In this document: piece after piece, positions 16,812 to 39,384 of the stretch
Position numbering within the stretch: the first letter of the stretch is position 1
How the letters are laid out: each line of letters begins with the position of its first letter
Assembly: GCA_045533505.1 (NCBI GenBank)
Contig: JAZSHY010000025.1
Coordinates: forward strand, 20,274-84,273
DNA: 64,000 nt
Source: Eubacteriales bacterium
Lineage (GTDB): Bacteria > Bacillota > Clostridia > Oscillospirales > CAG-272
Reading direction: 5' to 3'
Program-made: the position numbers and the translations under genes
The notes under the pieces: model-generated
Seen by the model: the letters and a program-made list of their open reading frames with translations, nothing else
Database searches by the model: none
Told to the model about the DNA's origin: nothing

Positions 16812-16933
16812 AGCCTTTCTTCCTTTCCTGCGGTAAGAGGGAAACCCCATTATAATATTTCACCTATAGTATACGCCACTCGGCGCACGGTTTTCTACAT
16901 AAATTCTTTTCCTAATTGTAAACGAATTATAAA

Positions 16934-22255: not shown

Positions 22256-22546
22256 CTGGTATACTCTCCCTTGCTTTATACGAATCAATTTAATAAAATC
22301 AATTGTACACTATAACCTCCTGTGATTCAATTCTGCTTCTCCCCGAAAATATCTTCTGTTGATGGCAACGGCTTTGTGCAAGTTCAACAAAGAATGCTTT
22401 ACGCGATAAAAAAAGCCCCGAAGGCATAGGGCTTTCAAGGCTTCTTATTGTGCAGGGAAGGATGCGCCGCGGAGAATTTACGTCCTTGCCGTCGAAGCAT
22501 CTTGGCAACGAGCGCCATAGGCATATAGCCGAGGTCAAGGCAAGTC

Positions 22547-24303: not shown

Positions 24304-25728
24304 CTATACTTTTTTGCTGTATGCCATAAGAAAAACAAGCACGGTGCCGCTAACAGCTGTCAGAGAAACCCATAGAACGAGGGTTGTGTTATCGGCAGCT
24401 GCGGGCGCGTCGGGAAGCTCTGCGTCATAGATGTTTTCAAATGTTGCACTCAAGGAATCCGCACTCTCACCGTCCATGGTGAAGGCGGCAATCAATTCGT
24501 TGCTTTCGTTCAGGAGCACGGTAACCGTGATTTCATGCACGTCGTCATCGTACGTCATGCCCGCAAGGCCCTCGTTGATTTCGGAGAGCTCGTAGGTATA
24601 GGTCTTGCCTATGTCTGCCCCTGTAAAGCTCAGAGAGAAGGAGGCCCTGCCATTGCCGTCGGAGGTTGCTGTGAGCCCCTCGGAGGTTGCTGTGTTTTTC
24701 AGCACGAACCGAAAACCGTCCGCCCCGTGTCGGGCCTCGCCTATGCTGTTGACAAGCTTATGAACAAAAATCGGCACGGTAATGGGTTCAGGCTCAATAG
24801 CTTCAGGGGGCAGGAAGGTATTGTTGAATGTGACGAAAACCGCATGCCCCTCCTGTGTTTCGGTTATCTCTGCGTTCTCGGTGCCCGAAACGGTGTTGAC
24901 CTCCAGGCTTCCGTCCATATCCGTGTCGGTCACAAGGACGGTAAAGTGATTGACGGTTTCGTCGCAATCCGCGTCAGACTCTCCGACGACCTCTCTCATG
25001 CGGAAGGTGTAGGTGCCGACCTTGTCAAAGCTTAGCGCCCGAAAAATCTCATTAAAGGAGAACCGATTGAAATCTGCCGCCGCGCCGTAGGTCACGGTCT
25101 GCTCGCCGAGCCTCGTCCAGCTCTCGCCGTCCTTCTGCTCCAACACGAACGTGAAGCTGTCGCCGTCCTGCCAGTCGCGCCCCTCCAGGAGCTTGACGCC
25201 GCCGACGGTGACGCGGCTCGGCTGCACGGCCTCGGGAGAATAGGTGTTCACAAAGGAAACGCTTGCGTCGCCGTCCTCCCCCACCGTTACCGTCCTTTCG
25301 GCCTCGCCCTTCACAGCAAAGCCGTCAAGCGCTGTGGGCTTCTCGGTCACCCGTACAACGGTGCCCTCCGCAAGGCCGAAAAGCCCAAAGGTGACACCCG
25401 GCTTGACGGTAACCGTCAGGGTGCCGCCTTCGTCGGCGGTGAGAGCCCCCGCGGTTGTTTCCAGCCTTGCGCCCGCATAGCGGGCCCCAAGCTCCACTTG
25501 AAAATCAAAGCTGATATTGTCGGGAAGCACATACCCATCCCCAAGCGGATGCTCCACCGTCTTGCAAAGCGAAAGCCTGCCCGCCTCTGCCGTGCCCGGA
25601 ACGAACACACCGGTCAAGGGCTCTGTCTTCGCCACGATGTAGCAATAGGTGGTTCCTATCGTCGATACCATCAGCAAAAAAAGCGACAGCACCATTGCTA
25701 TTCTTCGTATACCTGTTCCTTTTCGCAA
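24304..25728 (-). CDS. pilin-like protein: SipW-type signal peptide, three pilin isopeptide-type (Spy0128/CnaB-like) domains and a C-terminal TM anchor
   Basis: TTG start with GGAGGAGG 8 nt upstream. N-terminus is LLMVSTIGTTYCYIVAKTEPLTGVFVPG. Three repeats each end in F-x-N-x-(Y/F): SFVNTY, TFNNTF, TFENIY. Each has an upstream K and an F-x-F-x-L strand. The C-terminus is LPDAPAAADN, then a 21-aa hydrophobic helix, then KKV. Confidence 0.7.
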   Translation of the reverse strand: MRKGTGIRRIAMVLSLFLLMVSTIGTTYCYIVAKTEPLTGVFVPGTAEAGRLSLCKTVEHPLGDGYVLPDNISFDFQVELGARYAGARLETTAGALTADEGGTLTVTVKPGVTFGLFGLAEGTVVRVTEKPTALDGFAVKGEAERTVTVGEDGDASVSFVNTYSPEAVQPSRVTVGGVKLLEGRDWQDGDSFTFVLEQKDGESWTRLGEQTVTYGAAADFNRFSFNEIFRALSFDKVGTYTFRMREVVGESDADCDETVNHFTVLVTDTDMDGSLEVNTVSGTENAEITETQEGHAVFVTFNNTFLPPEAIEPEPITVPIFVHKLVNSIGEARHGADGFRFVLKNTATSEGLTATSDGNGRASFSLSFTGADIGKTYTYELSEINEGLAGMTYDDDVHEITVTVLLNESNELIAAFTMDGESADSLSATFENIYDAELPDAPAAADNTTLVLWVSLTAVSGTVLVFLMAYSKKV

Positions 25729-25835
25729 AACCTCTGCCTCCTCCTATCTCGTGAATAAGGCTCGCCGCCATCGGAAGCCGCGTGCCGCAAAGCCTTGCCT
25801 TTACCCCTGTGATTGTCGATGGGGGTGTCACTCGC

Positions 25836-26555
25836 TTATTTCCACGGACAGCCCACACGGCTAAAGGCACCGCTGTCGCTCACTGTCTGACTGTGGACCA
25901 GAATCTCGTATTTCCCATCGCCGTTGCCGTAAAGCCGATTGACGACATCGCGGGAAACGCTGCTTCTCAGCAAAATCTGAAGAAGGCAGGGGGGCGTTGT
26001 TTCGCCCGCGTTCAGCTCTTCGTTATACTCTGCGCAGACAACGGCGTATTTTGTGTCCCCGATTTTCACTCCCCACTCAAGCTCGCTCCATGTCCAGTCG
26101 GTGGAATTTCGGTTAAGAAGAACCGCCCTCCTGAATTCCTCCTCGGAGAGCTCGCCCATTTCGAAGGCAAACCACGTGCGGATATAGCCGCCCGTATTGC
26201 CTGTATTGGTAACGGCAACAATATGGTCCCGTGCATTCTTGACGGTATACATTTCCTCCCGCGAAGAAAGCGAGGTCTTAACCGTACGGTTCCCGTTGTC
26301 GGTCACCGAGAGCTCCGCCGCAAGCAGCATACTCTCCGGCTTTGGATTTTCTTCTGTTATCGGAAGCAGCATGGGCACCTCCGAGACAGGGCGCAGCCCT
26401 GTGCCGTCACGCTCCAGCTCAGACTGAACGATGGATAAGTACGGCGTGCCGGCGCGGAGGTCGCCGAGCGAGCCGTAAACCGCAACCACGGTCAGCAGTG
26501 CCAAAAGCGCGGTTATTCCCATCCATTTAATGACATTCAACACGTCATCTCCCAT
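25836..26555 (-). CDS. TasA/camelysin-like protein with an atypical N-terminus
   Basis: The core VTNTGNTGGYIRTWFAFE parallels VENTGKTDAYVRTIIAFE and VENTGKSDAYYRTLIALE in the two large paralogues. The C-terminus YEILVHSQTVS parallels YDILVASQAIQ. The ATG overlaps the upstream stop (TGATG). Confidence 0.65.
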   Translation of the reverse strand: MGDDVLNVIKWMGITALLALLTVVAVYGSLGDLRAGTPYLSIVQSELERDGTGLRPVSEVPMLLPITEENPKPESMLLAAELSVTDNGNRTVKTSLSSREEMYTVKNARDHIVAVTNTGNTGGYIRTWFAFEMGELSEEEFRRAVLLNRNSTDWTWSELEWGVKIGDTKYAVVCAEYNEELNAGETTPPCLLQILLRSSVSRDVVNRLYGNGDGKYEILVHSQTVSDSGAFSRVGCPWK

Positions 26556-26782
26556 CAATCGTGATTCTCATAGCGGATAAACGGTATGACGGAGAGCCAC
26601 AAGCGCCGCCTCCGGCGCCTCCAATAGCGCTGCGTACTGCCGCCTGTTCTGCCGATTTCACTGTTCAGGTATCTCAGCTCACTGCGGAAGCCGTGCAGCC
26701 AATACACAAAGGCAGCCAAAAAGCCAAAGCCCATCGCGGCAACGAGCAATCCAACCAATATCCAAAATCCCGTATCTTCCAT
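26555..26782 (-). CDS. small single-pass membrane protein with an Arg-rich tail
   Basis: 75 aa. FWILVGLLVAAMGFGFLAAFVYWL is a TM helix, followed by RYWRRRRRRLW. The gene is translationally coupled to the downstream gene. Its RBS is weak. Confidence 0.45.
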   Translation of the reverse strand: MEDTGFWILVGLLVAAMGFGFLAAFVYWLHGFRSELRYLNSEIGRTGGSTQRYWRRRRRRLWLSVIPFIRYENHD

Positions 26783-26826
26783 TTACCGAGGTCTCTCTTT
26801 TCTTATCAAAGGGGAATTGCCTTTCG

Positions 26827-26896
26827 GCAAGCAAGTGACACAAGGCGCGCTTATGCCCCTTGCTTGCCGCCCATCTCCACGAGGGGAGATGGGCGG
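26827..26896 (-). other. structured intergenic element inside the fibre operon (two adjacent strong hairpins, no T-tract)
   Basis: Stem ggcaagcaag (26827-26836) pairs with cttgcttgcc (26859-26868). Stem ccgcccatctcc (26867-26878) pairs with ggagatgggcgg (26885-26896). Confidence 0.4.
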
Positions 26897-26930
26897 AGCC
26901 TGCTTGGCTTACCTGCTCAAGCAGAACGGG

Positions 26931-28643
26931 TTACTGAGGCTGTTCGATAGGTTCCCAGCCACCGTCAGCAAGATATCTGCCGAGCTCGCCGTGAAAGACA
27001 CCGCCGGTAACGGTAACATTCTCGCGGGTGCTCTTGTCGCCGCCGCCGAAGCAAACGTCACCGATAAAGGTGCCGCCTGTAATTTGGATGTTGGTGCCTG
27101 CAAAGCTATCGCCGTACGAATAGGAGTACACGCAAACGTCGGTCTCCGTGTTGGTGCAAATCAGCTCACCGCCGTTGATGGTCAGATTTACGGGGCGAAC
27201 GTTGTTGATATTGCTGCCGGGCAGCTGAACCCAAATGGCACGCTTGCCGGTAACGGTGCCGCCATTGACAGTGACGTTGGTAGACAGGGTGTTGGAATTG
27301 CAGAACATACGGATGGCGCACTTGCCGACGCCGTCAATAACACCGTCGTTAACGATAAGCTCCGAGCCCTGATAGCAATCGATTGCATAGGAAGCACCGC
27401 CGGGGGCAGTAACATTCTTTACGGTAACGCCATCTATAATCAGCTTGCCCTCACACTTGATGGTGTTGTTGGCATAGCCGGGGAAGGCGGGCTGGCCTTC
27501 GCCGCCCCAATTGATGTCGGGGGTGGTGGCGCCAAAGGTAACAACCCCGTCGCCGGTCAGGGTGAGAGCGGCACCGGCCTTAACCGTAATCATCGCAGAA
27601 GCCGAGGCGTTTGTGGCAACGCCGGAAACCGTGTGGCCGTTTGTGTTCAGCACGGCATCCCCCGTCACGGTCAACGGCGCATCGGTAAGTGTGATGTCAT
27701 CGGTAAGGATAACCTCTCCGCCGTCGGCAAGGGCAGCCTTCAGCTCATTGGCAGAGGACACGAGCGCGGGAAGCTTCACTCCATCAGTCCAAGGATGGTT
27801 CGTGGTGGTGATATCTCCAAAGCCTGCATCAAGAGCTGTTTCGGCATCAGCAAAGCCTGCCGTCTGAATTGCCTGAGAAGCAACAAGGATGTCGTAAGCA
27901 CCGTTCTTGTTGCCGTCAATCGCTTCAACGGTCTCGTTGGTAGCTGCGGCCTTCATGTAAACCTGTGCAAGGCTGGGATAGGTGGTGTCGCCGGCAGGCA
28001 GAACGCCATTTTCATGAACGCCGCCAAAAGCCTTTGCGCCGTTGTAGATATACTCGGAAACGAAATAATTGTTGCCGTCAATCGCAGCAATGCCGATGTC
28101 CGTTACCTTCCAGACACCCTGTGCCGTCATGAAGCTGCTCGTTCCGATGAAAGCATCAAACTCATCCTCAGTCAAAGAACCGATTTCGAAAGCAATAATA
28201 GTACGTACATAAGCGTCGGTTTTACCGGTGTTTTCCACGGTTACGAATTTGTCCTGAACGTTCTTATTGACGAACACATCCATAGAGCCCTGGGAGCCAA
28301 CCTGGGACATTTTAACGCGGGTGCTGCCATAATCACCGGCACCGTAGTTGTAGGGAAGGCCATTGGCATCGATTTCAGTAGCAGGCAGCAGAGGCTTAGC
28401 CTGAGAGAAGTCCTTCAGCACATAGCTTGTTACACCGTCGATTTCTTCGGTCTTGTAAGTGCCGTTTTCAACAACACGCTCGTATTCGTGCTGCTCGATT
28501 TTGACGTTGCCGAGCGTCATAACGCTGACCGCGCTGTCCTCGCTTGTCAGATAGGCCACGGTGCCGCCGATGGCAAGTGCCGCAACCAACACGCAAGCGA
28601 CGCACAACAGAAGTCCTTTTTTCAGCTTTAAACCTTTAGACAT
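26931..28643 (-). CDS. TasA-like N-terminal domain fused to a right-handed beta-helix adhesin-like module (570 aa)
   Basis: ATG at 28643 with AAAGGAGA upstream. Signal peptide ...LVAALAIGGTVAYLTSEDSAVSVMTLGNVKIEQHEYER. TasA-like core runs to SQAIQTAGFADAETALDAGFG. The C-terminal half has repeating G-rich beta-helix turns (NGGTVTG, NGGELIC, TGGTFIG, TGGVFHG). Confidence 0.75.
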   Translation of the reverse strand: MSKGLKLKKGLLLCVACVLVAALAIGGTVAYLTSEDSAVSVMTLGNVKIEQHEYERVVENGTYKTEEIDGVTSYVLKDFSQAKPLLPATEIDANGLPYNYGAGDYGSTRVKMSQVGSQGSMDVFVNKNVQDKFVTVENTGKTDAYVRTIIAFEIGSLTEDEFDAFIGTSSFMTAQGVWKVTDIGIAAIDGNNYFVSEYIYNGAKAFGGVHENGVLPAGDTTYPSLAQVYMKAAATNETVEAIDGNKNGAYDILVASQAIQTAGFADAETALDAGFGDITTTNHPWTDGVKLPALVSSANELKAALADGGEVILTDDITLTDAPLTVTGDAVLNTNGHTVSGVATNASASAMITVKAGAALTLTGDGVVTFGATTPDINWGGEGQPAFPGYANNTIKCEGKLIIDGVTVKNVTAPGGASYAIDCYQGSELIVNDGVIDGVGKCAIRMFCNSNTLSTNVTVNGGTVTGKRAIWVQLPGSNINNVRPVNLTINGGELICTNTETDVCVYSYSYGDSFAGTNIQITGGTFIGDVCFGGGDKSTRENVTVTGGVFHGELGRYLADGGWEPIEQPQ

Positions 28644-28706
28644 AGTATATATCTCCTTTTCATATAAGTCTGAAGGGCACGGGGGCGCCCTTTTCAAACC
28701 CTTTCA

Positions 28707-30602
28707 TTATTGATTGTTGTAAATAACGGTAACACCCTCGTACGTCTTTAAGCCTTTAACGCCGTACTGATCGCCGCCGAAGATCTGGTCGAACGGGATT
28801 AGTTCCATATGGTGAGTTGTACACTGCGAATGATCGTAATCGGCGGGAAGGCCGCCATACGCATAGCCGGGCTCAACACGCATGCCGCGGCCATTGTTAT
28901 GACCGGGAGTAGGATCGCAGTAGTGATAATTTGCCCAATCACCGTATGTAACGGTTACGTTTTTGCAGGTGATGTTGTATTTGCTTGTATCGGGATAGTT
29001 AGCTCCGTCAATCGTCGTGGTTTCCGCCAAGCGTCCGATAATCATACCGCACATACGGTAGTTGTAATAGTCATAGGATGCGGTGCAGTCATTGTAAACG
29101 TCCAGACGGCAAGCGATATCTACGTTTTCAAAGTTGTAGGTAGCGCCGGGCTCGGCCTGGCCGACAATGCCGCCTGCCGAGCTGTCAAAGGAGCCCCAAA
29201 GGCCGCCTATTACAACATCCTCGCCAAGGGTGATATTCTTGAAATTATAGGTACCGGCACCCGACCAGCCGATAATACCGCCAATTCCGTTGTTATACGT
29301 TCCGATGCTGCCGCTCCTGATTTCGATGTTTTCGAAGGTGCAATCACCGGTTGCGCTGCCTGCGATAAATGCGATATCGCCACCCTCTACCTGGCAGTCA
29401 AAGCCTTCAAGAACAACGTTTTTGACGGTTGCTCCTTCAAGTTCAGAAAACAAGCCGATGGAGCCATACTTTCCCCATTCGTAACCGAAATCCCAACCGC
29501 TTTGGTAAAGGCTTGCGATGGTCTTGCCGTTCCCGTCAAAGGTCCCCTTGAACGGCTCTGTTATCAGCCTGCCGCTGCTGTCTCTCTCCGAGGTGGAGCC
29601 AATCGGCGCAAAGCTTTCGCCGCCAAGGTCAATATCCACACCAAGCGTTATGGTTTTCCCCTCGAAGTTGTTGCTGTCTTCCGCGACGAGTGCCGCGAAG
29701 CCGGCAAACTGCTCGGCAGAAGACAAGGTGAACTCCGTGTCGGTTGCGTTGTACCAAGAGGTGTCGGCAGTACCGTCCCAAGCATCCACAGAATGCTTGG
29801 CAACAACACCTTGGAACCACTCGGCGGCGGCTTCATCCGTCACATCGCCAAAGCCGGAATCCAAAGCGGTCTCGGCATCGGCAAAGCCCGCTGTCTGAAT
29901 TGCCTGGGAGAGAACGAGAATCTCGTATGTATCGCCAAGCAACGCCATATCCTCGTTGGTTGCATTGTGTGTCAAAACCACCTGAAGGAGAGAAGGACGG
30001 GAAACCTCACCGGGAGTCAAGCTTTCGTTGTAGGTGGCACACCACACCTCGTAGCGTGTTCCTTCAACGGTGATATAGCCTACGCTATAATCCCAAGTAA
30101 AACGGGAGTTGCCGTTGACGTTGACATTGATTTCATCATCATCGGAGTAGCCGATTGTCATACCCTCGGGGCATTCCAGAGCAATCAGCGTGCGGTAATA
30201 GGCATCACTCTTGCCGGTGTTCTCAACGAACACAAACTTATCCATCACATTTGAAAGCTTGCTGTCGTTCCAAAGACCGTTCCAGCCCGGGCTGTAAACA
30301 CCCCAGTGGAAGCAGCTGCCTTCGGCCTGCTCGGCCTCGTAGGCATCCTCTGCCGTAGGGACTGCGGGATAAAGGAGCTGCCCCTGAACAAAGGGAACAA
30401 GCTCGCCCTCCTGTGCTCCGGCATTGATATGGCCGACGCCCTCGGCACGCTCGTATTCGTGCTGCTCGATTTTGACGTTGCCGAGCGTCATTACGTTGAC
30501 GGCGCTGTCCTCGCTTGTCAGATAGGCCACGGTGCCGCCGATGGCAAGCGCCGCAACGAGGACAAGACCGAGGCATGACAGAAGCATGGTTTTGAGTTTC
30601 AT
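28707..30602 (-). CDS. TasA-like N-terminal domain fused to a GLUG-like repeat / beta-helix module (631 aa)
   Basis: The N-terminus is near-identical to the 26931 gene. The core reaches SQAIQTAGFADAETALDSGFG. The C-terminal half has SAEQFAGFAALV, GIGGIIGWSGAG and SAGGIVGQAE motifs of the GLUG type. Confidence 0.75.
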   Translation of the reverse strand: MKLKTMLLSCLGLVLVAALAIGGTVAYLTSEDSAVNVMTLGNVKIEQHEYERAEGVGHINAGAQEGELVPFVQGQLLYPAVPTAEDAYEAEQAEGSCFHWGVYSPGWNGLWNDSKLSNVMDKFVFVENTGKSDAYYRTLIALECPEGMTIGYSDDDEINVNVNGNSRFTWDYSVGYITVEGTRYEVWCATYNESLTPGEVSRPSLLQVVLTHNATNEDMALLGDTYEILVLSQAIQTAGFADAETALDSGFGDVTDEAAAEWFQGVVAKHSVDAWDGTADTSWYNATDTEFTLSSAEQFAGFAALVAEDSNNFEGKTITLGVDIDLGGESFAPIGSTSERDSSGRLITEPFKGTFDGNGKTIASLYQSGWDFGYEWGKYGSIGLFSELEGATVKNVVLEGFDCQVEGGDIAFIAGSATGDCTFENIEIRSGSIGTYNNGIGGIIGWSGAGTYNFKNITLGEDVVIGGLWGSFDSSAGGIVGQAEPGATYNFENVDIACRLDVYNDCTASYDYYNYRMCGMIIGRLAETTTIDGANYPDTSKYNITCKNVTVTYGDWANYHYCDPTPGHNNGRGMRVEPGYAYGGLPADYDHSQCTTHHMELIPFDQIFGGDQYGVKGLKTYEGVTVIYNNQ

Positions 30603-30680
30603 TGGTTATCTTTCCTTTCAAAAATATAATTTCGGGTATCGAACAGGCTTCCCCTTTTCATCTTTGCCTATGGCAGTGGC

Positions 30681-31364
30681 TCAGCTGCCGCCGGGGCCGA
30701 TGAGAGCCCAGGCTTCCGCGGCGGAGTCAATGGCGTCGATGTCGGCATCGCGCTGTACGGCATAGCCCGTGACGGTCATCCTCGGGTAGTTGCCGCTGTG
30801 AAGCTCCCGAAGCATTTCCCCCGTTACGCTGTCCTTGACTTTGACTTCGTCGTTCTTTAATACAGAGAACACCTTGTCTTCTGCGCTCGCGTCTGTCGCA
30901 CGGAAGTAAACACCGGGAGTGCCCTGTAAGGCCGTCCAGCCGTCGGCAACGGCATATTCGATGTAGTCGCCGAGGGCCTTGTCGCCGGATTCCCGAATCT
31001 CCACAAACAGCCAGCAAGCCTCGCTGTCAGCCAATACGGAAATCTTCGTGTCCTTTTCAATCGTCTTGCCGGGTGTCATCTTGAAATAGCGTCCGTCGCT
31101 CAGCACCTCGCCCTTCGTTTCGGTGAGGGTTATGCGGATATCGCCGTAGGTGAACACGTTGACGACGGGGTCGGTTCGGGCTGTCAGCCACGCAAGAGAG
31201 CCGCCAATCACGGAGAAGAGCACGAGGCAGGCCGCAAGAGTCATGAGTGCCGCCCTGAGGGCAGGGCCTCTGCCGCGATGGCCTTCCCCGCGAGAATGTT
31301 TTCCGAAAGACATGGGTTGCGTTTCTCCTTTCTCTTTATTTTGTATTTCAGTAAGCGGAGGCAT
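30681..31364 (-). CDS. TasA/camelysin-like secreted protein with a SipW-type signal peptide
   Basis: ...LAACLVLFSVIGGSLAWLTARTDPVVNVFTYGDIRITLTE. ATG at 31364 has GGAGG 7 nt upstream. An alternative ATG at 31313 follows AAAGGAGA. The ORF-track start at 31457 would overlap the upstream gene. Confidence 0.7.
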   Translation of the reverse strand: MPPLTEIQNKEKGETQPMSFGKHSRGEGHRGRGPALRAALMTLAACLVLFSVIGGSLAWLTARTDPVVNVFTYGDIRITLTETKGEVLSDGRYFKMTPGKTIEKDTKISVLADSEACWLFVEIRESGDKALGDYIEYAVADGWTALQGTPGVYFRATDASAEDKVFSVLKNDEVKVKDSVTGEMLRELHSGNYPRMTVTGYAVQRDADIDAIDSAAEAWALIGPGGS

Positions 31365-31395
31365 GTCGCTTCCTCCGTTGCTTGAAGCGTAAGGA

Positions 31396-32037
31396 TTACT
31401 TGGAGAACGCCGACCATGCCTCATCGGCATCGGCAAAGCCGGCTGCCTGAACCGCATGCGCTTCGACGGTAATTTCCAAATCAGAAACGGCGGCGAGCTG
31501 CGCGCCGTTCATAGCCGAGGGAACGGTTATCGCGTCAAAGAGCGCATCGAGAACAAGGTCAGCGTCCTTCTCCGCCCTGACGGTATCGAAATAGCGGAAC
31601 TCGTAGATTGCCGTGCCTGCCACCTCGTCCTTGACAATGGCATCGGTGGCAACCCACACGGAGCTATCCCAGCCCGCAACAAAATACCGAAGCAGGAAGG
31701 GTTCGCCGAAGATGGCCGACAGCTCGTCGTAGCAGCTGACGGTGACAAGCATACGGACATAGGCCTCCTCGCTCCCCCTGAGAACAGTAACCGTAGGGTC
31801 CTTGGTGTAGGTCTTGCCGGGGACGAGATGATACGCGTTGCCGTCCTCGGTTCTGCCACCGATTGGCTCTCCGCGTTCGTTCACGGCAGCTTCATCAAGC
31901 TTCAGGTGCACCTTGCCCACGGTAAAGGTATTGACGACCTCGTCCGTGTCCTGTAAATAGGCAACAGTCCCGAGAACGGCTGCCGACACCAGGAGAACAG
32001 CACACAGCAGGAGGAGTATCGGTTTGGTTTTTTTCAT
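31396..32037 (-). CDS. TasA/camelysin-like protein, candidate major fibre subunit (213 aa)
   Basis: MKKTKPILLLLCAVLLVSAAVLGTVAYLQDTDEVVNTFTVGKVHLKLDE is the SipW-cognate signal pattern. It is single-domain and sits first after sipW. AAGGAGA RBS. Confidence 0.75.
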   Translation of the reverse strand: MKKTKPILLLLCAVLLVSAAVLGTVAYLQDTDEVVNTFTVGKVHLKLDEAAVNERGEPIGGRTEDGNAYHLVPGKTYTKDPTVTVLRGSEEAYVRMLVTVSCYDELSAIFGEPFLLRYFVAGWDSSVWVATDAIVKDEVAGTAIYEFRYFDTVRAEKDADLVLDALFDAITVPSAMNGAQLAAVSDLEITVEAHAVQAAGFADADEAWSAFSK

Positions 32038-32067
32038 TTCGGATTCTCCTTTATGGTCATTTTGTTT

Positions 32068-32577
32068 TCATGTTTTATCGTCGGTGACAGCGTCTACCGT
32101 CATCACGAAAACGACAGCCGCCATTGCCACGCCGATGGCAACGTAAAGCCCGGGCGGATTTTGGATATACATAGAAAGATACCCGAGAAGCGGAATACAG
32201 AAGATTACCTTGCCTTCAACCTGCTCAAATTCCACAAGAGCTCGGTCAAAGTCGTCGTTGTTATCTCCCTTGGTGCGAAAACGGACGATGCCGGGATCGT
32301 CCTCGTCGGGAACGAGCTCCTTGATTCGGTGGGTGGCTGTGGTCGTATCGGTTATCCGATAGGTAATGACATCCCCCTCCTTCAGGCTTGCGGGGTCGGC
32401 ATCCGCAAGATAAATGAGGGAGCCTGTGGGATACGTCGGCTCCATGGACGGAGAAAGAACCGCGAGAACGTCAAGGCCTGCGATTCTGACGCCCACAAGG
32501 AGAATGGCAAGGAGCACCACCAGAATCACAAGGGAATGGGAGACAAGCCTTAATGCTCGTTTTAAAATTCGGTTCAT
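32068..32577 (-). CDS. sipW: signal peptidase I, SipW (archaeal/ER) type
   Basis: N-terminal TM helix, catalytic Ser box LSPSMEPTY, His box ATHRI, KGDNN box, and a C-terminal TM helix. Confidence 0.85.
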   Translation of the reverse strand: MNRILKRALRLVSHSLVILVVLLAILLVGVRIAGLDVLAVLSPSMEPTYPTGSLIYLADADPASLKEGDVITYRITDTTTATHRIKELVPDEDDPGIVRFRTKGDNNDDFDRALVEFEQVEGKVIFCIPLLGYLSMYIQNPPGLYVAIGVAMAAVVFVMTVDAVTDDKT

Positions 32578-32601
32578 GTCTCTGTTCGCTCACACTCTCT
32601 T

Positions 32602-33189
32602 TCAAACCGCAGCTTCCTTGAAATACTGCTCAACCGAACGGTAAATCACACGGAACACATGCTCGCTGTAATCGTCATCCTTATTCATTCTGTCACAATG
32701 CACCTTCACGGCAAAATCCAGCATCACGTTCAGCACGTGGTTGAGAATCATCCACGTGTCGGCCTCGGCCCTGAAGGCATCCCGGAATTTTTTCACAAGC
32801 GGCGCATACCGTTGCTTATGCGCCTCGTAGGAGTATTTTTCGAAATACGGGGAATAATAATAACGGACAAAGGCAAGACACCTTTCCCTGTTGCCGAGAA
32901 GGAACCCCCACATTGCCGCAAAGAAAAGCCTGCACCGCTTTTCGTACCCCAGCTCTTGCCTGTACATGACCTCCACGTGCTGCAGCGCTTTTGCCACAAG
33001 CTCCTCGTCCAGCCTTTCAAAGGCGGTTGAGAGAAGGTCCTCCTTATCCTTAAAAAAACGGTAAATATAGGCTTCGTTGATGTCGGTTCCCTTGACAATG
33101 GCCTTCGTCACGGTTTTATCCAAGCCGTTCTCGGCAATGACTGTAATTGTCCTGTCCATCAGTCTGTTTCGCACATCATAGTGCTTCAC
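32602..33189 (-). CDS. TetR/AcrR-family transcriptional regulator
   Basis: The HTH region is ITVIAENGLDKTVTKAIVKGTDINEAYIYRFFKDKEDLL. GTG at 33189 has AAGGAGG 9 nt upstream and is preferred over ATG at 33213. Confidence 0.75.
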   Translation of the reverse strand: MKHYDVRNRLMDRTITVIAENGLDKTVTKAIVKGTDINEAYIYRFFKDKEDLLSTAFERLDEELVAKALQHVEVMYRQELGYEKRCRLFFAAMWGFLLGNRERCLAFVRYYYSPYFEKYSYEAHKQRYAPLVKKFRDAFRAEADTWMILNHVLNVMLDFAVKVHCDRMNKDDDYSEHVFRVIYRSVEQYFKEAAV

Positions 33190-33330
33190 GGGAAATGGCC
33201 TCCTTTTCTGCATTGTTAAGTGTTTGCTACTTTTGTGACAGAAAAATAAGCAGACAGCTCCCCCTTCGGTTCCTATGCCTCGGTTTTACGAACATGACGA
33301 ACACACGGAGGCTGTCGGCCTCGCAACATA

Positions 33331-33346
33331 TTCGCAGAGTTATCCC
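33331..33346. repeat. left arm of a 16-bp perfect inverted repeat (IR-L)
   Basis: ttcgcagagttatccc. Its exact reverse complement occurs at 34784-34799. Confidence 0.85.
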
Positions 33347-33423
33347 CTATGCAACGGTGGATAGGAAGCCGCAGTCATACAGGGCCTGTTTTGGATTTTG
33401 ACGATTTTCTTTGACGGCTAAAA

Positions 33424-34530
33424 TCAAAGACCGACGGCAGAAAGCTTGTCCATATTGGCCCGCTTCAAGGCGAGAGAGGAATGCACATAGCGGTCCAGAG
33501 TGACCTTGGCGCTGGCATGGCCGAGGATTTCACTCAGCGATTTGATTTCAAAGCCGACCTCAACGCACCGTGTGGCAAAGGTGTGGCGGAGCGTATGAAA
33601 ATGCACGTCCCTCAAGCCGCAGGCCTCCGTGTATTTTGCAAGACGGTATTGCAATACACGCGGCTCAATATAGCGAAGCGGTTCGCCCGTCAGCACGTAG
33701 GCCTTCCCGTTAAAGACATGCATTCGCTTGCACAAATCAAACGCCGAGGCACTTAACGGAATCTCTCTTTTTGAGGTTTGGCTTTTAGCTTCCCCCACGG
33801 TGATTTTGGTTTTTGCGCTTGAGGATTTGTCAAGAATTTGCAGCCTCTGCATGGTAGAGGAAACACGAATCACGCGGTCTGCCACCAAAATGTCCTCCCA
33901 TTTCAACGCGCAAACCTCTCCGATGCGAAGCCCGGTAAGCAGCGCGAGCAGCACCCCGAACCTCACCTCGTCCATATCGGACAGCAGAAACCGAATAAAC
34001 CGCTGCTGCTCCTCCGGAGTCAATACGCGCATCTCCCTTTTGCGTTCCTTGGGATAAATCACCTCAATGTCGGGGAAGCCTTCCCCTATTTGCCGTCGGC
34101 AATGTCTGAGAACAGCCTTTAACACCACCAAAATGTCGCGAACGGTTTTCGGCGACAAGCCGTCCGATAGCAACGTATGGGAAAACTCCTCAATCAAGAC
34201 GGTGTTGAGGCTTTGAGGAAGATATCCCCCAAGAGCCGGTTCTAAGTGCCGCTTGACCGTGTTATAATATTTTACGTAGGTTGACTCCTTCACTCTGCTT
34301 CGGGACAGCGTGAGCCACTCGGCACAGAAATAACGGAGGTCCCGTCTGTTGGAGGCGGGCCTCGTGTGTCCTGCTTGCTTGGCGGCAGTCAGCTTTTCTC
34401 TGACCTCGCGGTAGGTTTTTGCGTAGACATACCCGAAGCGCGTCTTGCCTCTGCCGTCATACCCCTTGATATAACGCCCTTCCCATCGGTTGTCCTTGCG
34501 CTTGTAAATGTTTTCGCCTCGTCTTGCCAT
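33424..34530 (-). CDS. tyrosine site-specific recombinase/integrase with an N-terminal Arm (AP2-like) DNA-binding domain
   Basis: N-terminus YKRKDNRWEGRYIKGYDGRGKTRFGYVYAKTYREVREKL. Catalytic residues are intact: LLTGLRIGEVCAL (R), HFHTLRHTFAT (HxxR), LGHASAKVTLDRYVH (H...Y). Confidence 0.85.
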   Translation of the reverse strand: MARRGENIYKRKDNRWEGRYIKGYDGRGKTRFGYVYAKTYREVREKLTAAKQAGHTRPASNRRDLRYFCAEWLTLSRSRVKESTYVKYYNTVKRHLEPALGGYLPQSLNTVLIEEFSHTLLSDGLSPKTVRDILVVLKAVLRHCRRQIGEGFPDIEVIYPKERKREMRVLTPEEQQRFIRFLLSDMDEVRFGVLLALLTGLRIGEVCALKWEDILVADRVIRVSSTMQRLQILDKSSSAKTKITVGEAKSQTSKREIPLSASAFDLCKRMHVFNGKAYVLTGEPLRYIEPRVLQYRLAKYTEACGLRDVHFHTLRHTFATRCVEVGFEIKSLSEILGHASAKVTLDRYVHSSLALKRANMDKLSAVGL

Positions 34531-34717
34531 GTCTCTAAACTCCTTATTATAAAATTGGCAGCACCTCGGAGCGAGGAGCCGCGTATGCCACGCGTATGCG
34601 ACGGAACTGACGGCTTATTTGACGGAAAACCGTTGTAAAAACCCCACAAACACCGCTATATCAAGCACCGTCGGAATGTAAAATATGAACGAAAGGGAGC
34701 CGTTTTGCAAAAAAACC

Positions 34718-34746
34718 TTGCTTTTTTCTCGGTTTTGTGGTAAAAT
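34718..34746 (+). promoter_or_regulatory. extended -10 sigma-A type promoter facing outward across IR-R
   Basis: TTGCTT (34718-34723), 17-nt spacer ending in TGg, then TAAAAT (34741-34746). Confidence 0.45.
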
Positions 34747-34783
34747 TAAGTGAAATTGCAGGGAGAACCGCACCCTCTCAGAT

Positions 34784-34799
34784 GGGATAACTCTGCGAA
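34784..34799. repeat. right arm of the 16-bp perfect inverted repeat (IR-R)
   Basis: gggataactctgcgaa, the reverse complement of 33331-33346. Confidence 0.85.
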
Positions 34800-34813
34800 A
34801 AACAGGCGTCTGT

Positions 34814-34846
34814 ATCACGCATTTCCTGATGCGTGATTTTCTTTTT
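34814..34846 (+). terminator. rho-independent terminator 15 nt beyond IR-R
   Basis: Stem atcacgcat (34814-34822), loop ttcctg, stem atgcgtgat (34829-34837), then tttcttttt. Confidence 0.6.
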
Positions 34847-34861
34847 ACTAAAAAGCAAAAA

Positions 34862-34904
34862 AGAGAGGACAAATCGGTTGCAGCCGAAATGTCCTCTCTT
34901 TTTC
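34862..34904. terminator. second, bidirectional terminator hairpin
   Basis: Stem agagaggaca (34862-34871) pairs with tgtcctctct (34890-34899). An A-run precedes it and ttttt follows. Confidence 0.55.
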
Positions 34905-35097
34905 GGTTTACAAAGCTTTTGCTGCCGCGAAAGCGAAGCCGTTCGCGACAGCTTGCAGTAAAGTTAAGATTACATGTATCTTCTGCCGTAACAGTTGGCC
35001 TCAACGCCTCGGCGAAGCTTCACTCACAAAAGAAGCTTCTCTTGTCCGTGAAAGAGGTGCGGCACGAAAAACGTGCCGCACCTCTTTCTTTTTGCCA

Positions 35098-36906
35098 TCA
35101 CGTGAACTGAGAGTGATATAGGGAGTGATAAAAGCCCTTCTTTCTTAGGAGCTCCTCGTGATTCCCCTGCTCAATTATGCTTCCGTCCTTGACGACAAGA
35201 ATCGTATCCGCGTTCTGAATCGTGGACAGGCGGTGCGCGATGACGAAGCAGGTTCTGTTTTTCATCAGCTCGTTCATCGCGGCTTGTATCTGCATCTCGG
35301 TGCGCGAGTCAACGTTTGAGGTTGCCTCGTCAAGAATCAGGATAGGCGCACGGGAGAGAAAGGCGCGCGCTATGGTTATCTGCTGCTTCTGCCCCTTCGA
35401 AATATTCACACCGTCATCCGAGAGCACTGTGTCGTATCCGTCGGGGAGCCCCTCGATATACGAGGCTATCCTTGCCGAGCGCGCCGCCGCGTACACCTCC
35501 TCGCGGGTGGCGTCCTCTCTGCCGTATACGATATTGTCGTATATCGTTCCGCAGAAAAGCCACGTGTCCTGAAGCACCATGGTGAAGGCGAGGCGGAGGT
35601 CCTTGCGCTTGATTTTCACCGAGGGTATCCCGTCCACCGTGATTTCTCCGCTCTCTGCGTCATAAAACCGCATGAGCAGATTGATGATGGTCGTCTTCCC
35701 CGCGCCCGTAGGCCCGACGATGGCCACCGTCCTGCCTCTCGTTGCGCTGACCGATACGTTTTTGAGCACCGTTTTATCCTCGGTGTACCCGAAGGTTACG
35801 TCACGGAGGCAAACGTCTCCCCTCACGTCGGTGAGGGCGCGGACGTCGGGCTCGTCCTCCCTCTCGGGCTCCTCGTCAAGAATGGCAAACACGCGCTCAG
35901 CCGCCGAAAAGGCCGACTGAAATTCGTGAAGGATATTGGAGAACTCATTGATGGGGCCCGCGAACTTCCTCGAATATTGCACGAACTGTGCCACACCGCC
36001 AAGCGTGATATAGAAGGCGGAGGCCGCAAGGAAGGTGCCGTTCTCGGAATACATATAGAGAATGCCTCCGATAACCGCCACAAGCGTGAGCGAGAGATTG
36101 TTGATGAGGTTTATGGTGGGGAAAAGCAGGGCGCCGCCGTATTCCGCCCGATGGAAGGCAGACATGGCCTCGTCGTTTATTTTGTTGAAGCGCGCCGACA
36201 TCTCCTCCTGCCGCCCGTAGGCCGCTATCGTGCGCGAGCCCGTGAGCATTTCCTCGGCAAAGCCGTTAAGCTCCCCGTATTTTTTTGCCCTTTGCCTGAA
36301 AAGCGGGCGCACCCTTCGGGAGCGATAGCGGGTAAAGAGGATAGAAACGGGAACGGTTACGGCAAAAATAAGCAGCATGGGCCTCGATATCTGCCACATA
36401 AAAAGGAGCGAGCCGACAACCGTATACACGCTTGTCATCACCTGGACAAGGTCATGAGAGAGGGTGCTGTTGATGGTGTCAATATCGTACGAGAGGTGGC
36501 TTATGATATCGCCCGTCGCATGGGTGTCGAAATAATGCACGGGGAGCGCGGTCAGCTTTTCGAACACCTGGCGGCGCATTCTGTATATGATGCGCTGACT
36601 GAGATGTATCATCACCACCGAGAGAATATAGGAAAGCACCGCCGAGACGGCGTAGCAGCCTATCATATACATGACGTTTTCAAAAACGGCAGAGAAATCG
36701 ACGCCGCCCGAGGCCTCTATGGCGTCAATGGCCGCGCCCGAATATTTCGGGCCGAGCAGAGAGAGCTGGTTGGCACCGAGTGTCAGAAGGACGGCGAGGG
36801 TAAACAGCGGCCACTGCCGAAGCACGTATTTGCCAAGGCGCAGAAAAACCCCTTTTTTGGAGCGCACTCCCTCTTTTTGGTTCCTTTTGTCAGTCAAGGA
36901 AGGCAC
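35098..36906 (-). CDS. ABC transporter ATP-binding protein/permease (type I exporter half-transporter)
   Basis: Six-TM domain followed by an NBD (GPTGAGKTTIINLL, ISKGQKQQITIARAF, ILILDEATSNVD). The start is uncertain: GTG at 36906 or TTG at 36897. It overlaps the upstream gene's 3' end. Confidence 0.85.
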   Translation of the reverse strand: MPSLTDKRNQKEGVRSKKGVFLRLGKYVLRQWPLFTLAVLLTLGANQLSLLGPKYSGAAIDAIEASGGVDFSAVFENVMYMIGCYAVSAVLSYILSVVMIHLSQRIIYRMRRQVFEKLTALPVHYFDTHATGDIISHLSYDIDTINSTLSHDLVQVMTSVYTVVGSLLFMWQISRPMLLIFAVTVPVSILFTRYRSRRVRPLFRQRAKKYGELNGFAEEMLTGSRTIAAYGRQEEMSARFNKINDEAMSAFHRAEYGGALLFPTINLINNLSLTLVAVIGGILYMYSENGTFLAASAFYITLGGVAQFVQYSRKFAGPINEFSNILHEFQSAFSAAERVFAILDEEPEREDEPDVRALTDVRGDVCLRDVTFGYTEDKTVLKNVSVSATRGRTVAIVGPTGAGKTTIINLLMRFYDAESGEITVDGIPSVKIKRKDLRLAFTMVLQDTWLFCGTIYDNIVYGREDATREEVYAAARSARIASYIEGLPDGYDTVLSDDGVNISKGQKQQITIARAFLSRAPILILDEATSNVDSRTEMQIQAAMNELMKNRTCFVIAHRLSTIQNADTILVVKDGSIIEQGNHEELLRKKGFYHSLYHSQFT

Positions 36907-38608
36907 CCCCCATCTGCGAGTCGCTTATTTCTTTGTATTCGGGGCAGCTCTCCATAAGCGCATCATGCCGCCCGCAGCCGATGATTTCCCCGTTTTCAAT
37001 GACGAGAATGAGGTCGCAGCCCTTAACCGAGCTCACCCTCTGCGCCACCGTTATCACGGTGGAGTCGGGGAGCGCCTCCCCGAGTGCCGCGCGAAGGGCG
37101 GCGTCGGTCCTGTAATCGAGTGCGGAGGAGGCGTCGTCAAGAATAAGAATCTCGGGCTTTGCCGCTATCGCACGGGCAATCAGCACGCGCTGCCTCTGCC
37201 CGCCCGAAAGATTGGTGCCTCCCGTGGAGACGGGGTGAGCAAAGCCGTCGGGGAAAGCGGTGATGAACTCATAGGCCTGCGCGACCTTAGCGGCCTCCGC
37301 GATGTCCTCATCCGTGATATCCCGCCCGAAGCGAATGTTTTCCTCTATGGAGGCGGCGTAGATGAAATCGTTCTGGAAGACGGCTCCGAACATCGCGGAA
37401 AGCTCCTCGGGCGCATAGGAGCGCACGTCCCGCCCGTGAATCCGCACGGTGCCCGAGGAGGCGTCGTAGAACCGCATAAGCAGGCGGATTACCGTCGATT
37501 TGCCGCTGCCCGTTGCCCCGATGATGCCGAGCCTTTCTCCCTTTTTCAGCGAGAAGGAGACGTTCGCAAGGTCAGGCCTTTTCCCGAGGTAGGAAAAGCT
37601 TACGTTCTCAAAGGAAATGTGAAGCGAGGTGTCACCCCTGCCGTCGTCCTCCTGCAAAAAAAGCTCGCTTTCGGTCTCCATCACGGCGGCAATACGCCCC
37701 GCGGAGGCGGCACATTTCGTATACATGACGAACATGCGGGAGAGCGACATCATCGCCATGGAAATCAGCGTAAAATACTGCATGAAGGCAATGACCGTGG
37801 TGACCGACGACGTGCCCTCGGCCACAAAGACGGCACTCACCGCGATAACGGCAACAATGCCCATGTTCATAAGCAGCGTCATAACGGGGTTTACGACACC
37901 CATGATAATGCCCGCGCGTCCCTCGTCACGCCTGAGCGAAAGATTGGCCCTGTCATAGCGCGCGTTTTCATACTCCACCTTGGACAGCGCCTTGATGACG
38001 CGAATGCCCTGCGCGTCCTCACGGACGACACGCACCATGCCGTCCACCGATTGCTGCACCCTCGCATAGAGAGAAACGCCCCGCCGCGAAATTCCATATA
38101 CCACAAAAAAGATGAGCGGAAGCGTGGCTATCATCACGAGCGCGAGCTTTCTGTCCATGAGCATCGTGATACCCGTGCCGCCGATGAGGAGGATGGGCGC
38201 GCGTATTCCCATTCTTTGCATCATTCCTATAAAGTTCTGAACGTTATAGGTATCCGAGGTTATCCTCGCTTCAAGCGAGGGAACCGTAAAGCTATCGGTG
38301 CTTCTTGCAGAGAGGTGCAGCGTCCTCGAAAAAAGCTCACGCCTCATTCGGGAGGAAAACAGCATGGTCGTCCTCGCGGCCATTCGGTTTGCCACGATGT
38401 TCCCAAGGCAGGCAATCGCGGCACAGACGGCCATAAGAACACCGAAAAGGAGGATATCCCCCGCCCGGTTTTCGACGATTACGTTTTCCAGTATATACGA
38501 CAGCAAAAAGGGAATCATCAGCTCGGAAACGGTGCCGATGATTTTGATAAAAATCCCGAGCGATATTCTCGCGCGGAGCGGCTTTAAGTATGTAAGGGCC
38601 CACTTCAT
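36890..38608 (-). CDS. ABC transporter ATP-binding protein/permease (partner half-transporter)
   Basis: TMD followed by an NBD (GATGSGKSTVIRLL, LSGGQRQRVLIARAI, ILILDDASSALD). The ATG overlaps the marR stop (ATGA). Confidence 0.85.
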   Translation of the reverse strand: MKWALTYLKPLRARISLGIFIKIIGTVSELMIPFLLSYILENVIVENRAGDILLFGVLMAVCAAIACLGNIVANRMAARTTMLFSSRMRRELFSRTLHLSARSTDSFTVPSLEARITSDTYNVQNFIGMMQRMGIRAPILLIGGTGITMLMDRKLALVMIATLPLIFFVVYGISRRGVSLYARVQQSVDGMVRVVREDAQGIRVIKALSKVEYENARYDRANLSLRRDEGRAGIIMGVVNPVMTLLMNMGIVAVIAVSAVFVAEGTSSVTTVIAFMQYFTLISMAMMSLSRMFVMYTKCAASAGRIAAVMETESELFLQEDDGRGDTSLHISFENVSFSYLGKRPDLANVSFSLKKGERLGIIGATGSGKSTVIRLLMRFYDASSGTVRIHGRDVRSYAPEELSAMFGAVFQNDFIYAASIEENIRFGRDITDEDIAEAAKVAQAYEFITAFPDGFAHPVSTGGTNLSGGQRQRVLIARAIAAKPEILILDDASSALDYRTDAALRAALGEALPDSTVITVAQRVSSVKGCDLILVIENGEIIGCGRHDALMESCPEYKEISDSQMGGAFLD

Positions 38609-39045
38609 TGGCTTTCCTCTTGTCCTTCTATGATTTCACGGGCGCGCCTCTGCATACGCGCGAGCACCGCGTCGAACACGGCAAGCTCCTCCTCGGGTAT
38701 CCCCTCGGAGAGAAGCGCCATCCATTCCTCCGACGCCTTTTGCACCTCGGGAAGCAGCTGTCGCATCTTCTCTGTCGGATAGACCGAAACCTGCCGCCTG
38801 TCATTGGGCTGCGTGCTCCTCTCTATATAGCCCCTCTCCTCAAGATACCCGAGATTTCTTGTCACCGTGCTTTTGTTGATACAAAGCTCGCGCGCAAGCT
38901 CCTCCTGCGAGCGCCCGGGAGAATGGCATATCGCCAGCACAAAGGAATAATGCCCCGACAAAAGGTCATCCGCCGAAATTCTCCCGTGTCGGTATATTGC
39001 CTGCGAGCGACTGATATTGTTCAGCAGCTTCATGAACCTTGACAC
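38605..39045 (-). CDS. MarR-family transcriptional regulator
   Basis: Winged-helix region SQEELARELCINKSTVTRNLGYLEERGYIER...DRRQV. GTG at 39045 has GGAGG 7 nt upstream. ATG at 39060 and ATG at 39033 are alternatives. Confidence 0.8.
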   Translation of the reverse strand: MSRFMKLLNNISRSQAIYRHGRISADDLLSGHYSFVLAICHSPGRSQEELARELCINKSTVTRNLGYLEERGYIERSTQPNDRRQVSVYPTEKMRQLLPEVQKASEEWMALLSEGIPEEELAVFDAVLARMQRRAREIIEGQEESQ

Positions 39046-39063
39046 AGTCTTACCTCCCATAAA

Positions 39064-39083
39064 ATAGTTGCGCACGCAACTAT
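39064..39083. promoter_or_regulatory. palindromic candidate MarR operator
   Basis: atagttgcg-ca-cgcaactat, a 9-2-9 inverted repeat immediately upstream of marR. Confidence 0.45.
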
Positions 39084-39384
39084 CGTAGCAGAAAACGGGA
39101 CGGAAGTCAAGAGGCGGCGAGGTATTCCGCAAAAAAAGGGACGAGCGACGCTCGTCCCTTTTCCGTTATTTCTTTTTTCTCGGCTTCCTTATGCGAGAGA
39201 GCTGCCTGTTCCTTTTGAGAAGCTCCTCCTTGGTGAAGGAAATGTTCATCATTCCCCATCATGGAGGAGAGGCGGAGGATGCTGAAGCCGCCGAGCATTT
39301 GCACAATACCGCCCGTGCCCGCGCCCTTGAGGTCAACGTCAAAGCCGCCCGCCTTCGCCACAATCACACTCTCGCCCTCGGCCT

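Follow-up and report, generated by a model that had tools for sequence, protein, structure and literature searches.

A probable recombinase-carrying invertible promoter cassette beside a SipW operon in an Eubacteriales bacterium, with relatives across Clostridia

A tyrosine recombinase gene bracketed by inverted repeats, placed directly in front of an operon for secreted proteins, raises the question of whether the operon is controlled by DNA inversion. Such an arrangement was found in a 64,000-nt stretch of DNA from an Eubacteriales bacterium (GCA_045533505.1, contig JAZSHY010000025.1, positions 20,274 to 84,273, forward strand), hereafter the window. The segment at 33331-34799 adjoined, on its left, the 5' end of an operon beginning with genes for a TetR regulator and a SipW-type signal peptidase and, on its right, the 3' end of a convergent ATP-binding cassette (ABC) transporter gene. 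An earlier note on the same DNA had proposed that the segment carries an outward-facing promoter and that its inversion determines whether the operon is expressed. The repeats, the intact enzyme, natural inversion among relatives and the family-wide conservation of sites, promoter and repeats were all observed here, and it is very probable that 33331-34799 acts as an invertible promoter cassette by which the operon next to it is controlled.

The cassette was 1469 bp long and was delimited by TTCGCAGAGTTATCCC (33331-33346) and, at 34784-34799, the exact reverse complement of this 16-mer (16/16 identical), with the recombinase gene (33424-34530) as the sole real gene between the arms; both the coordinates and the gene content agreed with the earlier note. 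The inverted repeat could be prolonged to 29 nt with 83% complementarity (33331-33359 versus 34771-34799). An exact 16-mer pair was expected by chance about 2.8e-5 times (~210 x 567 position pairs, or ~1.2e5, divided by 4^16), which reproduces the previous estimate of ~3e-5, and none of 100 shuffles of the window gave three matches to the 16-mer with up to three mismatches. Further copies, also a concern of the earlier note, were sought in the 64-kb window and no other exact one was found. Across metagenomes, the exact 16-mer returned 120 single chance matches on unrelated environmental contigs, none of which aligned to the window. A copy with two mismatches (TTCGCCGAGGTATCCC, 14745-14760) lay inside an ABC/FtsX gene (13965-16850) and is probably due to chance. 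A third core site in the window was rejected, as a scan allowing up to two mismatches gave just chance-level matches inside genes.

Inverted half-sites around a short centre are the usual form of a tyrosine-recombinase core site, and both ends of the cassette could be read in this way. The left inverted repeat (IR-L) core site (33331-33355), whose first 16 nt are the exact inverted repeat, comprised the outer half-site TTCGCAGAG (33331-33339), the centre TTATCCC (33340-33346) and the degenerate inner half-site CTATGCAAC (33347-33355). The right inverted repeat (IR-R) core site (34775-34799) comprised a degenerate inner half-site (34775-34783), the 7-bp centre GGGATAA (34784-34790) and the outer half-site CTCTGCGAA (34791-34799). 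The outer half-site and the asymmetric 7-bp centre were the same in both sites, the inner half-sites agreed at 6/9 positions, and the two 25-bp core sites were inverted relative to each other. No direct repeat indicative of a target-site duplication was found outside the cassette ends (flanks ...caacata and aaacagg...).

Evidence that the segment inverts in nature came from close relatives. The nearest recombinase homologue (92% identity) was found on contigs L001 and L002, obtained from two other samples, whose loci were ~90-92% identical to the window. In a BLASTN comparison of the window with L001, the left flank was collinear up to 33346 and the right flank from 34781, with 33331-34799 inverted, so that the breakpoints, including the one at IR-L, fall inside the repeats. 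The flanking sequence diverged by ~8-10% between the two, and the 16-mer was identical. In L001 the outward promoter described below was kept as TTGCTT-17-TGaTAGAAT and pointed at TetR-SipW. The prediction that the segment between the 16-mers inverts and brings the promoter to TetR-SipW was thus borne out by L001 and L002, which were inverted exactly at the repeats. Contig L205 (83% identity) shared the orientation of the window, and both orientations occurred among the 83-92% relatives. Opposite orientations are therefore known from different samples; the sample of the window itself is represented by one assembled orientation. L001 also carried a second right-hand site 102 bp further out, with a perfect 24-nt direct repeat (L001:9177-9302), and had one site upstream and two downstream, whereas L206 (83%) had two sites upstream and one downstream (L206:37-155). 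Both layouts resemble what an inversion that used the outer site would leave behind.

Inside IR-R, an extended -10 promoter motif was found on the + strand at 34718-34746 (TTGCTT-17-TGgTAAAAT), as the earlier note had read it, with TTGCTT at 34718-34723, TG at 34738-34739, TAAAAT at 34741-34746 and a 17-nt spacing. It pointed outward, its -10 element ending 53 nt from the outer end of IR-R. Beyond the repeat, the two intrinsic terminators described previously were confirmed on the + strand (34814-34846, recovered by the terminator scan, and 34862-34904), both folding strongly (minimum free energy -61 kcal/mol, z = -5.85), and were followed by the convergent ABC gene (35098-36906, Pfam-scanned). 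To these was added a third + strand terminator-like hairpin (35050-35088), with a 17-bp stem followed by TTTTT, just before the 3' end of the ABC gene. Three + strand hairpins were therefore packed within 275 nt (34814-35088), with no + strand gene upstream of them, the switch promoter aside. The second, which has an A-tract before and a T-tract after its stem, may work in both directions, and in the OFF state the three together may shield the convergent ABC operon from transcription started at this promoter. An Rfam search of 32500-35500 gave nothing near any gathering score, and the terminator region corresponded to no known RNA family.

On the opposite side, the leader between IR-L and the TetR start (33190-33330, minus strand; GTG start at 33189, ribosome-binding site AAGGAGG) was devoid of promoter-like sites. 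Even a permissive pattern revealed no sigma-A-like promoter on the minus strand of 33170-33346, in keeping with the earlier failure to identify a convincing one for the operon in 33190-33330. As the promoter is insulated and the operon has none of its own, the orientation present in the window would be OFF, with the promoter facing three terminators and the convergent ABC gene. After inversion, the promoter would be placed at 33384-33412 on the minus strand.

The recombinase (33424-34530, minus strand; 368 aa) contained the PF00589 (Phage_integrase) and PF14659 (SAM-like) domains, and the residues R202, H312, R315, H338 and Y348 were invariant across 42 aligned recombinase sequences. A profile search of the PDB gave Tn1549 Int as the top match (E = 2.5e-20). 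A Foldseek search with the AlphaFold2 (AF2) model of the enzyme (predicted local distance difference test, pLDDT, 80.6) reached E = 1.3e-14 and a template modelling score (TM) of 0.63-0.72, and returned Tn1549 Int first and then full-length lambda Int, the alignment with the latter spanning 363-377 columns, essentially the whole length. An N-terminal domain (residues 7-52) was predicted to consist of three strands (7-10, 16-24 and 30-37) and a helix (40-52), giving the domain order N-terminal sheet-plus-helix, core-binding, catalytic. Judged from these matches, the recombinase appears to have the three-domain architecture of lambda/Tn916 integrases, its catalytic and core-binding domains being homologous to theirs. 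Two other classes of invertase were considered and rejected. A serine invertase of the Hin/Gin/Cin type was incompatible with the presence of just Phage_integrase and SAM-like domains and with the fold, which is that of tyrosine recombinases, and a FimB/FimE-type invertase with a score of 17.7 bits for NF007370, the NCBIfam model of tyrosine-type DNA invertases, against a cut-off of 221, as well as with the length of 368 aa and the extra N-terminal domain. No identical database records of the window recombinase or of the SipW protein were found.

Short repeats resembling the arm-type sites of integrases were present inside both ends of the cassette, all on the minus strand. The tail pair (33396-33419), just past the recombinase stop codon, consisted of AGCCGTCAAA (33410-33419) and ATCGTCAAAA (33396-33405), 13-14 nt apart. 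The head group (34598-34626), upstream of the recombinase ATG, consisted of TTCCGTCAAA (34617-34626), AGCCGTCAG (34607-34615) and the weaker TCCGTCGCA (34598-34606). Head and tail copies in the window belonged to one motif on one strand. In the wider recombinase family, paired (G)CCGTCAAA repeats, 12-13 nt apart, were likewise located inside both ends and on the recombinase strand. Head pairs with a 12-nt spacing preceded the ATG by 30-106 nt in most cases, and in most motif-bearing loci the first tail copy began 2-9 nt past the stop codon. In 15-19 of 41 loci, GCCGTCA or CGTCAAA was shared, in direct orientation, by head and tail, and the motif covaried by subfamily, GCAGTCAAA/GTGTCAAA replacing CCGTCAAA in some. 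The paired CCGTCAAA repeats inside both ends are thus likely arm-type sites of the recombinase and, taken with the integrase-like fold, suggest a heterobivalent integrase whose arm sites lie inside its own cassette.

A scan of one genome per species recovered at least 579 relatives of the recombinase, of which the best 80 loci (41-71% identity) were examined. They belonged to Oscillospiraceae, Lachnospiraceae, Acutalibacteraceae and other Clostridia, and came mostly from gut and rumen metagenome-assembled genomes (MAGs). In about 50 of these loci, the core motif TTCGCAGAGT was located ~250 nt (205-310) upstream of the ATG and its reverse complement ~85 nt (70-135) past the stop codon. The core consensus of the family, TTTCGCAGAGTT-N4-ACTCTGnG or TTTCGCAGAGTTnnnnACTCTGnG, again had a short asymmetric centre between half-sites in inverted orientation. 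The outward promoter was conserved too: the pattern TTGnnn-16/18-(TGn)TAnnnT with a score of at least 10 occurred in 83% of 47 loci, immediately inside the upstream site and on the outward-reading strand, compared to 1.7% of dinucleotide-shuffled controls and 0% on the opposite strand, and the TG extension in 68% compared to 1% of shuffles. The -10 element ended mostly ~29 or ~52 nt from the end of the site.

Operons with TetR, SipW and SipW-cognate genes adjoined the element in ~20 loci, always with their 5' end nearest. The promoter side was occupied in ~10 of these and the tail side in ~10, in addition to L205 and L207/L208/L210. Across the family, ON and OFF orientations were about equally frequent. 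Other neighbours encoded SpaA, collagen-binding or VWA pilin-adhesins, DUF7601, SLH, dockerin and LRR proteins, and Listeria-Bacteroides-repeat proteins, and the neighbouring operons always began at the element. The opposite side was mostly occupied by a convergent gene; ~13 loci had outward-facing genes on both sides, based on crude open reading frame (ORF) calls. These two-sided loci included L034, L053, L070, L029 and L071/L073; in L034, the element lay between a TetR-SipW operon and the gene for a 1301-aa SASA-plus-dockerin protein. Such an arrangement suggests an either/or toggle between two surface structures.

Further variation concerned the number of core sites and the length of the enzyme. 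Two or three tandem core sites, 33-103 bp apart on one side, were observed in L001, L206, L006, L014, L021, L030, L004 and L069; nested or multi-state inversions would be possible where they occur. The window had just two core sites. The homologues in L056, L061, L063 and L070 began at about residue 63 and had no N-terminal domain. In L056, L061 and L070, the shorter gene was preceded, at a distance of a few hundred nt, by a palindromic core site and followed directly by another, and in L063 no core site was found; this sub-group would represent a different, more compact architecture.

About 20 of the 120 best homologues were located on contigs of 1.27-1.71 kb. Unitigs L203 and L204 started and finished inside the repeats, and the longer contigs L019 and L036 ended at a repeat. 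The ends of L026 (a contig named k99) were exact 99-nt reverse complements with the same 79-nt outer flank on both sides, and L206 had the same 36-nt outer flank, inverted, at both ends. Same-flank contigs of this kind are expected if reads of both junctions were present in one sample, a long natural repeat being the alternative.

The operon adjoining the cassette in the window (24304-33189, minus strand) had the same gene order in L001. It encoded the TetR regulator (32602-33189; 195 aa by the L001 gene call), the SipW-type signal peptidase (32068-32577; 87.9 bits with the SipW/archaeal-type model against a cut-off of 51.85), four proteins with SipW-dependent signal peptides or homologues of such proteins in related loci (31396-32037, 30681-31313, 28707-30602 and 26931-28697), a 240-aa ORF (25836-26558) and an FctA/DUF7601 isopeptide-domain protein (24304-25728). 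With TIGR04088, the model of the SipW-type signal peptide, scores of 28.1 and 20.5 bits were obtained (cut-off 19). The description of the operon as tasA-like held for the SipW-type signal peptide and the SipW partner, and not for homology in sequence or fold. The 213-aa protein had no Pfam match and no PDB profile match, and homology to TasA/camelysin (Peptidase_M73) was not supported, no TasA being among the Foldseek PDB matches of its AF2 model (pLDDT 81); the top match, which was not TasA, had E = 0.012 and TM ~0.2-0.3. An exact 11-nt inverted pair, TTCTGTCACAA and TTGTGACAGAA (32688-32698 and 33233-33243, 534 nt apart), had one arm inside the TetR gene and the other in the operon leader, and might be a TetR operator half-site or due to chance.

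To the right of the switch, the minus-strand genes at 35098-39132 comprised the distal ABC gene (35098-36906), an ABC exporter-type gene judged by its translation (36890-38608) and a MarR-like ORF named by reading its sequence (38605-39132), and have the appearance of a separate efflux operon that runs towards the switch. To the left, downstream of the fibre locus, lay the gene for a 1367-aa protein with a weak MBG-domain match (18185-22288, minus strand), possibly a further large surface protein.

Several observations weigh against an active promoter switch at 33331-34799. The -35 element of the window promoter is weak, matching 3/6 consensus positions, and for this reason the promoter was not listed by a generic consensus scan. 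For the recombinase itself, no sigma-A-type promoter was found between the core site and the ATG in any of the 47 loci (in the window 34531-34783, minus strand). The N-terminal 66 residues had no sequence match in the PDB (profile search) or in Pfam (E up to 10), and the arm-binding role proposed for this domain would follow from its predicted fold and the conservation of the repeats. No terminator was found between the recombinase stop codon and IR-L, where 8 of the 47 relatives have one, so the OFF state may be slightly leaky; the earlier assignment of the window to the OFF orientation, reinforced by the three terminators and the convergent ABC gene, is qualified in this respect. In one related species, all three samples (L207, L208 and L210) were OFF. 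Lastly, the window contig was assembled straight through the switch (121,941 bp, the longest among those listed for the 213-aa protein), which suggests that one orientation dominates in that sample. The contigs encoding P0123, a 76% relative of the 213-aa protein, all ended short of the switch.

Some of these points would fit a relic, in which inversion has been occasional in evolution and the switch is now fixed here, the operon being left under TetR or other regulators. The window contig assembled through the switch, the three OFF samples of the related species, the inner half-sites degenerate to 6/9 and the recombinase lacking a recognisable promoter all agree with such fixation. A decayed switch would nevertheless hardly be expected to keep an intact recombinase with every catalytic residue, or an outer half-site and centre matching at 16/16, the 16-mer being retained in L001 despite the ~8-10% divergence of the flanks. 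Moreover, the 83-92% relatives occur in both orientations and yield unitigs bounded by the inverted repeats as well as same-flank contigs, and fixation in the window appears unlikely. A different use of a real inversion can also be envisaged, its main output being expression of the recombinase, antisense transcription into the ABC exporter operon, or transcription of the operon by read-through from the recombinase gene. The recombinase gene and the operon are co-directional in the present orientation, with no terminator between the recombinase stop codon and IR-L (present in 8/47 members), and the ~13 loci with outward genes on both sides suggest toggling between two outputs. This was judged quite improbable: three + strand terminators separate the promoter from the ABC gene, read-through should be weak from a recombinase gene without a recognisable promoter, and most loci have a gene starting at the element on one side only, with a convergent gene opposite.

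The cassette also has the superficial appearance of an insertion sequence, its 1.47 kb holding a single recombinase gene between terminal inverted repeats, and it could be supposed that it is a small mobile element (IS-like or mini-integrative), that the repeats are transposition ends and that the opposite orientations are independent insertions. Hundreds of copies exist across Clostridia, one MAG had two diverged copies (L047 and L082), contig breaks at the repeats could also result from multicopy repeats, and the closest solved relatives of the enzyme are mobile-element integrases. Independent insertion does not, however, account for the flanks of L001 and the window, which are in the same order and position with breakpoints inside the repeats, nor for the identical flank at both ends of L026 and L206, which is what flipping in place predicts. 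An insertion sequence or transposon was further rejected on the grounds of the tyrosine recombinase enzyme, the absence of a direct repeat outside the ends, hence of a target-site duplication, and the finding of no more than one copy in the window. Both ends are complete core sites that share one asymmetric centre and are inverted relative to each other, which makes them a substrate for inversion and not for excision; an excising, att-bounded integrative element was rejected on this basis, along with a cargo consisting of the promoter alone and a stable place beside homologous operons. The cassette has stayed at the 5' end of homologous TetR-SipW operons over a range of 42% to 92% recombinase identity, and its conserved outward promoter would be useless for transposition. 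A mobile element is thus a highly improbable explanation of the locus.

The invertible promoter cassette would operate as follows. The recombinase would bind the two inverted core sites, probably bridged via the arm sites; with such sites inside both ends, the enzyme could connect the two ends of the cassette that encodes it. It would then exchange strands in the asymmetric centres, which are identical, and so flip 33347-34783, the inverted placement of the core sites leading to inversion without excision. In the OFF state, the promoter would fire into the three terminators and the TetR-SipW operon would be silent or weakly read through from the recombinase gene. In the ON state, the promoter at ~33384-33412 (minus strand) would transcribe across IR-L and a ~190-nt leader into TetR-SipW and the secreted-protein genes. 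We infer that the promoter would be active, that the arm sites would be bound, and that switching would proceed at some rate with a corresponding phenotype.

A broader interpretation, to which we give about even chances, is that the locus is one of many lambda/Tn916-type integrase cassettes that have been domesticated in Clostridia of the gut and rumen and form a large family not so far characterised. The ~1.45-kb modules would be mini-elements reduced to int and arm sites, with one core site reversed so that a reaction of the excision type yields inversion, each carrying an outward promoter and acting as a private, portable ON/OFF switch or toggle for SipW fibres, sortase pili, dockerin or SLH proteins, and the two or three tandem core sites of some members would allow nested inversions.

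If this is true, uncultured Oscillospiraceae, Lachnospiraceae and related gut Clostridia, groups in which phase variation has to our knowledge barely been studied, would vary their fibres, pili and cellulosome-type proteins by DNA inversion. The signature of the cassettes (TTTCGCAGAGTT-N4-ACTCTG, outward extended -10 promoter and CCGTCAAA repeats) would make hundreds of such switches findable from sequence. Surveys of short invertons usually limit the distance between repeats, and many switches of this size may consequently have been missed. The family would also provide a natural case of a predicted arm-binding integrase performing inversion and a compact one-gene switch that might be reusable in Gram-positive anaerobes. 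For metagenomics, it would account for a class of contig breaks and for the 1.4-1.6-kb orphan "integrase" contigs. In the literature, no account was found of a 1.47-kb switch that encloses its integrase, of the arm-type repeats belonging to it or of SipW operons controlled by inversion, and the recombinase-cassette family is apparently both large and undescribed.

Among known systems, Salmonella hin/hixL-hixR/fljBA also has a recombinase gene and an outward promoter inside the invertible segment, which drives a surface-structure operon in one orientation. The earlier designation of the locus as hin/fljBA-type was accordingly apt for the layout, with the recombinase inside the switch, and not for the enzyme class or the direction of the promoter. 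Hin belongs to the serine invertases and depends on an enhancer bound by Fis, whereas the enzyme here is a tyrosine recombinase (PF00589) with 25-bp tyrosine-type core sites and putative arm sites; the fljBA promoter lies downstream of hin in the same direction, whereas the promoter here lies upstream of the recombinase gene and is divergent from it. E. coli fimS with FimB/FimE, and Proteus MrpI, share the inversion of a promoter segment by a tyrosine recombinase in front of a fimbrial operon. FimB and FimE, however, are ~200 aa long, lack an arm-binding domain and are encoded outside their switch of 314 bp, in contrast to the 368-aa integrase-like enzyme encoded inside a 1.47-kb switch.

Within Clostridia, the RecV switches of C. 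difficile (cwpV, flgB, cmrRST and pdcB) are likewise cases of phase variation of surface and motility loci by a tyrosine recombinase. There, one distant recombinase serves many small switches (PMC5903667, PMC7446863), whereas each switch here carries its own. The parts available of a survey of a defined gut community describe inverton group 139 of gut Clostridia (~255 bp), which is linked to a tyrosine recombinase (invertase group 35) described as nearby and 'non-regulatable' and showed orientation shifts in culture; going by its description, invertase group 35 may be the same or a sister recombinase family, and a 1.47-kb form enclosing the recombinase is absent from those parts (PMC11892184).

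The Tn916/Tn1549 and lambda integrases were the best matches in sequence and fold; the N-terminal domain is predicted to have a three-strand-plus-helix form like theirs, and the candidate arm repeats beside both core sites recall the attL and attR of an integrated element. The cassette differs from these elements in its core sites, which are inverted and not direct, in having no cargo but a promoter, and in its association with the same operon type across deep divergence. With the tapA-sipW-tasA operon of B. subtilis, the locus shares a SipW-type peptidase encoded together with proteins bearing SipW-dependent signal peptides (TIGR04088), although the secreted proteins here match neither Peptidase_M73/TasA in Pfam nor TasA structures. 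The Bacillus matrix operon is regulated by SinR and other factors, not by DNA inversion.

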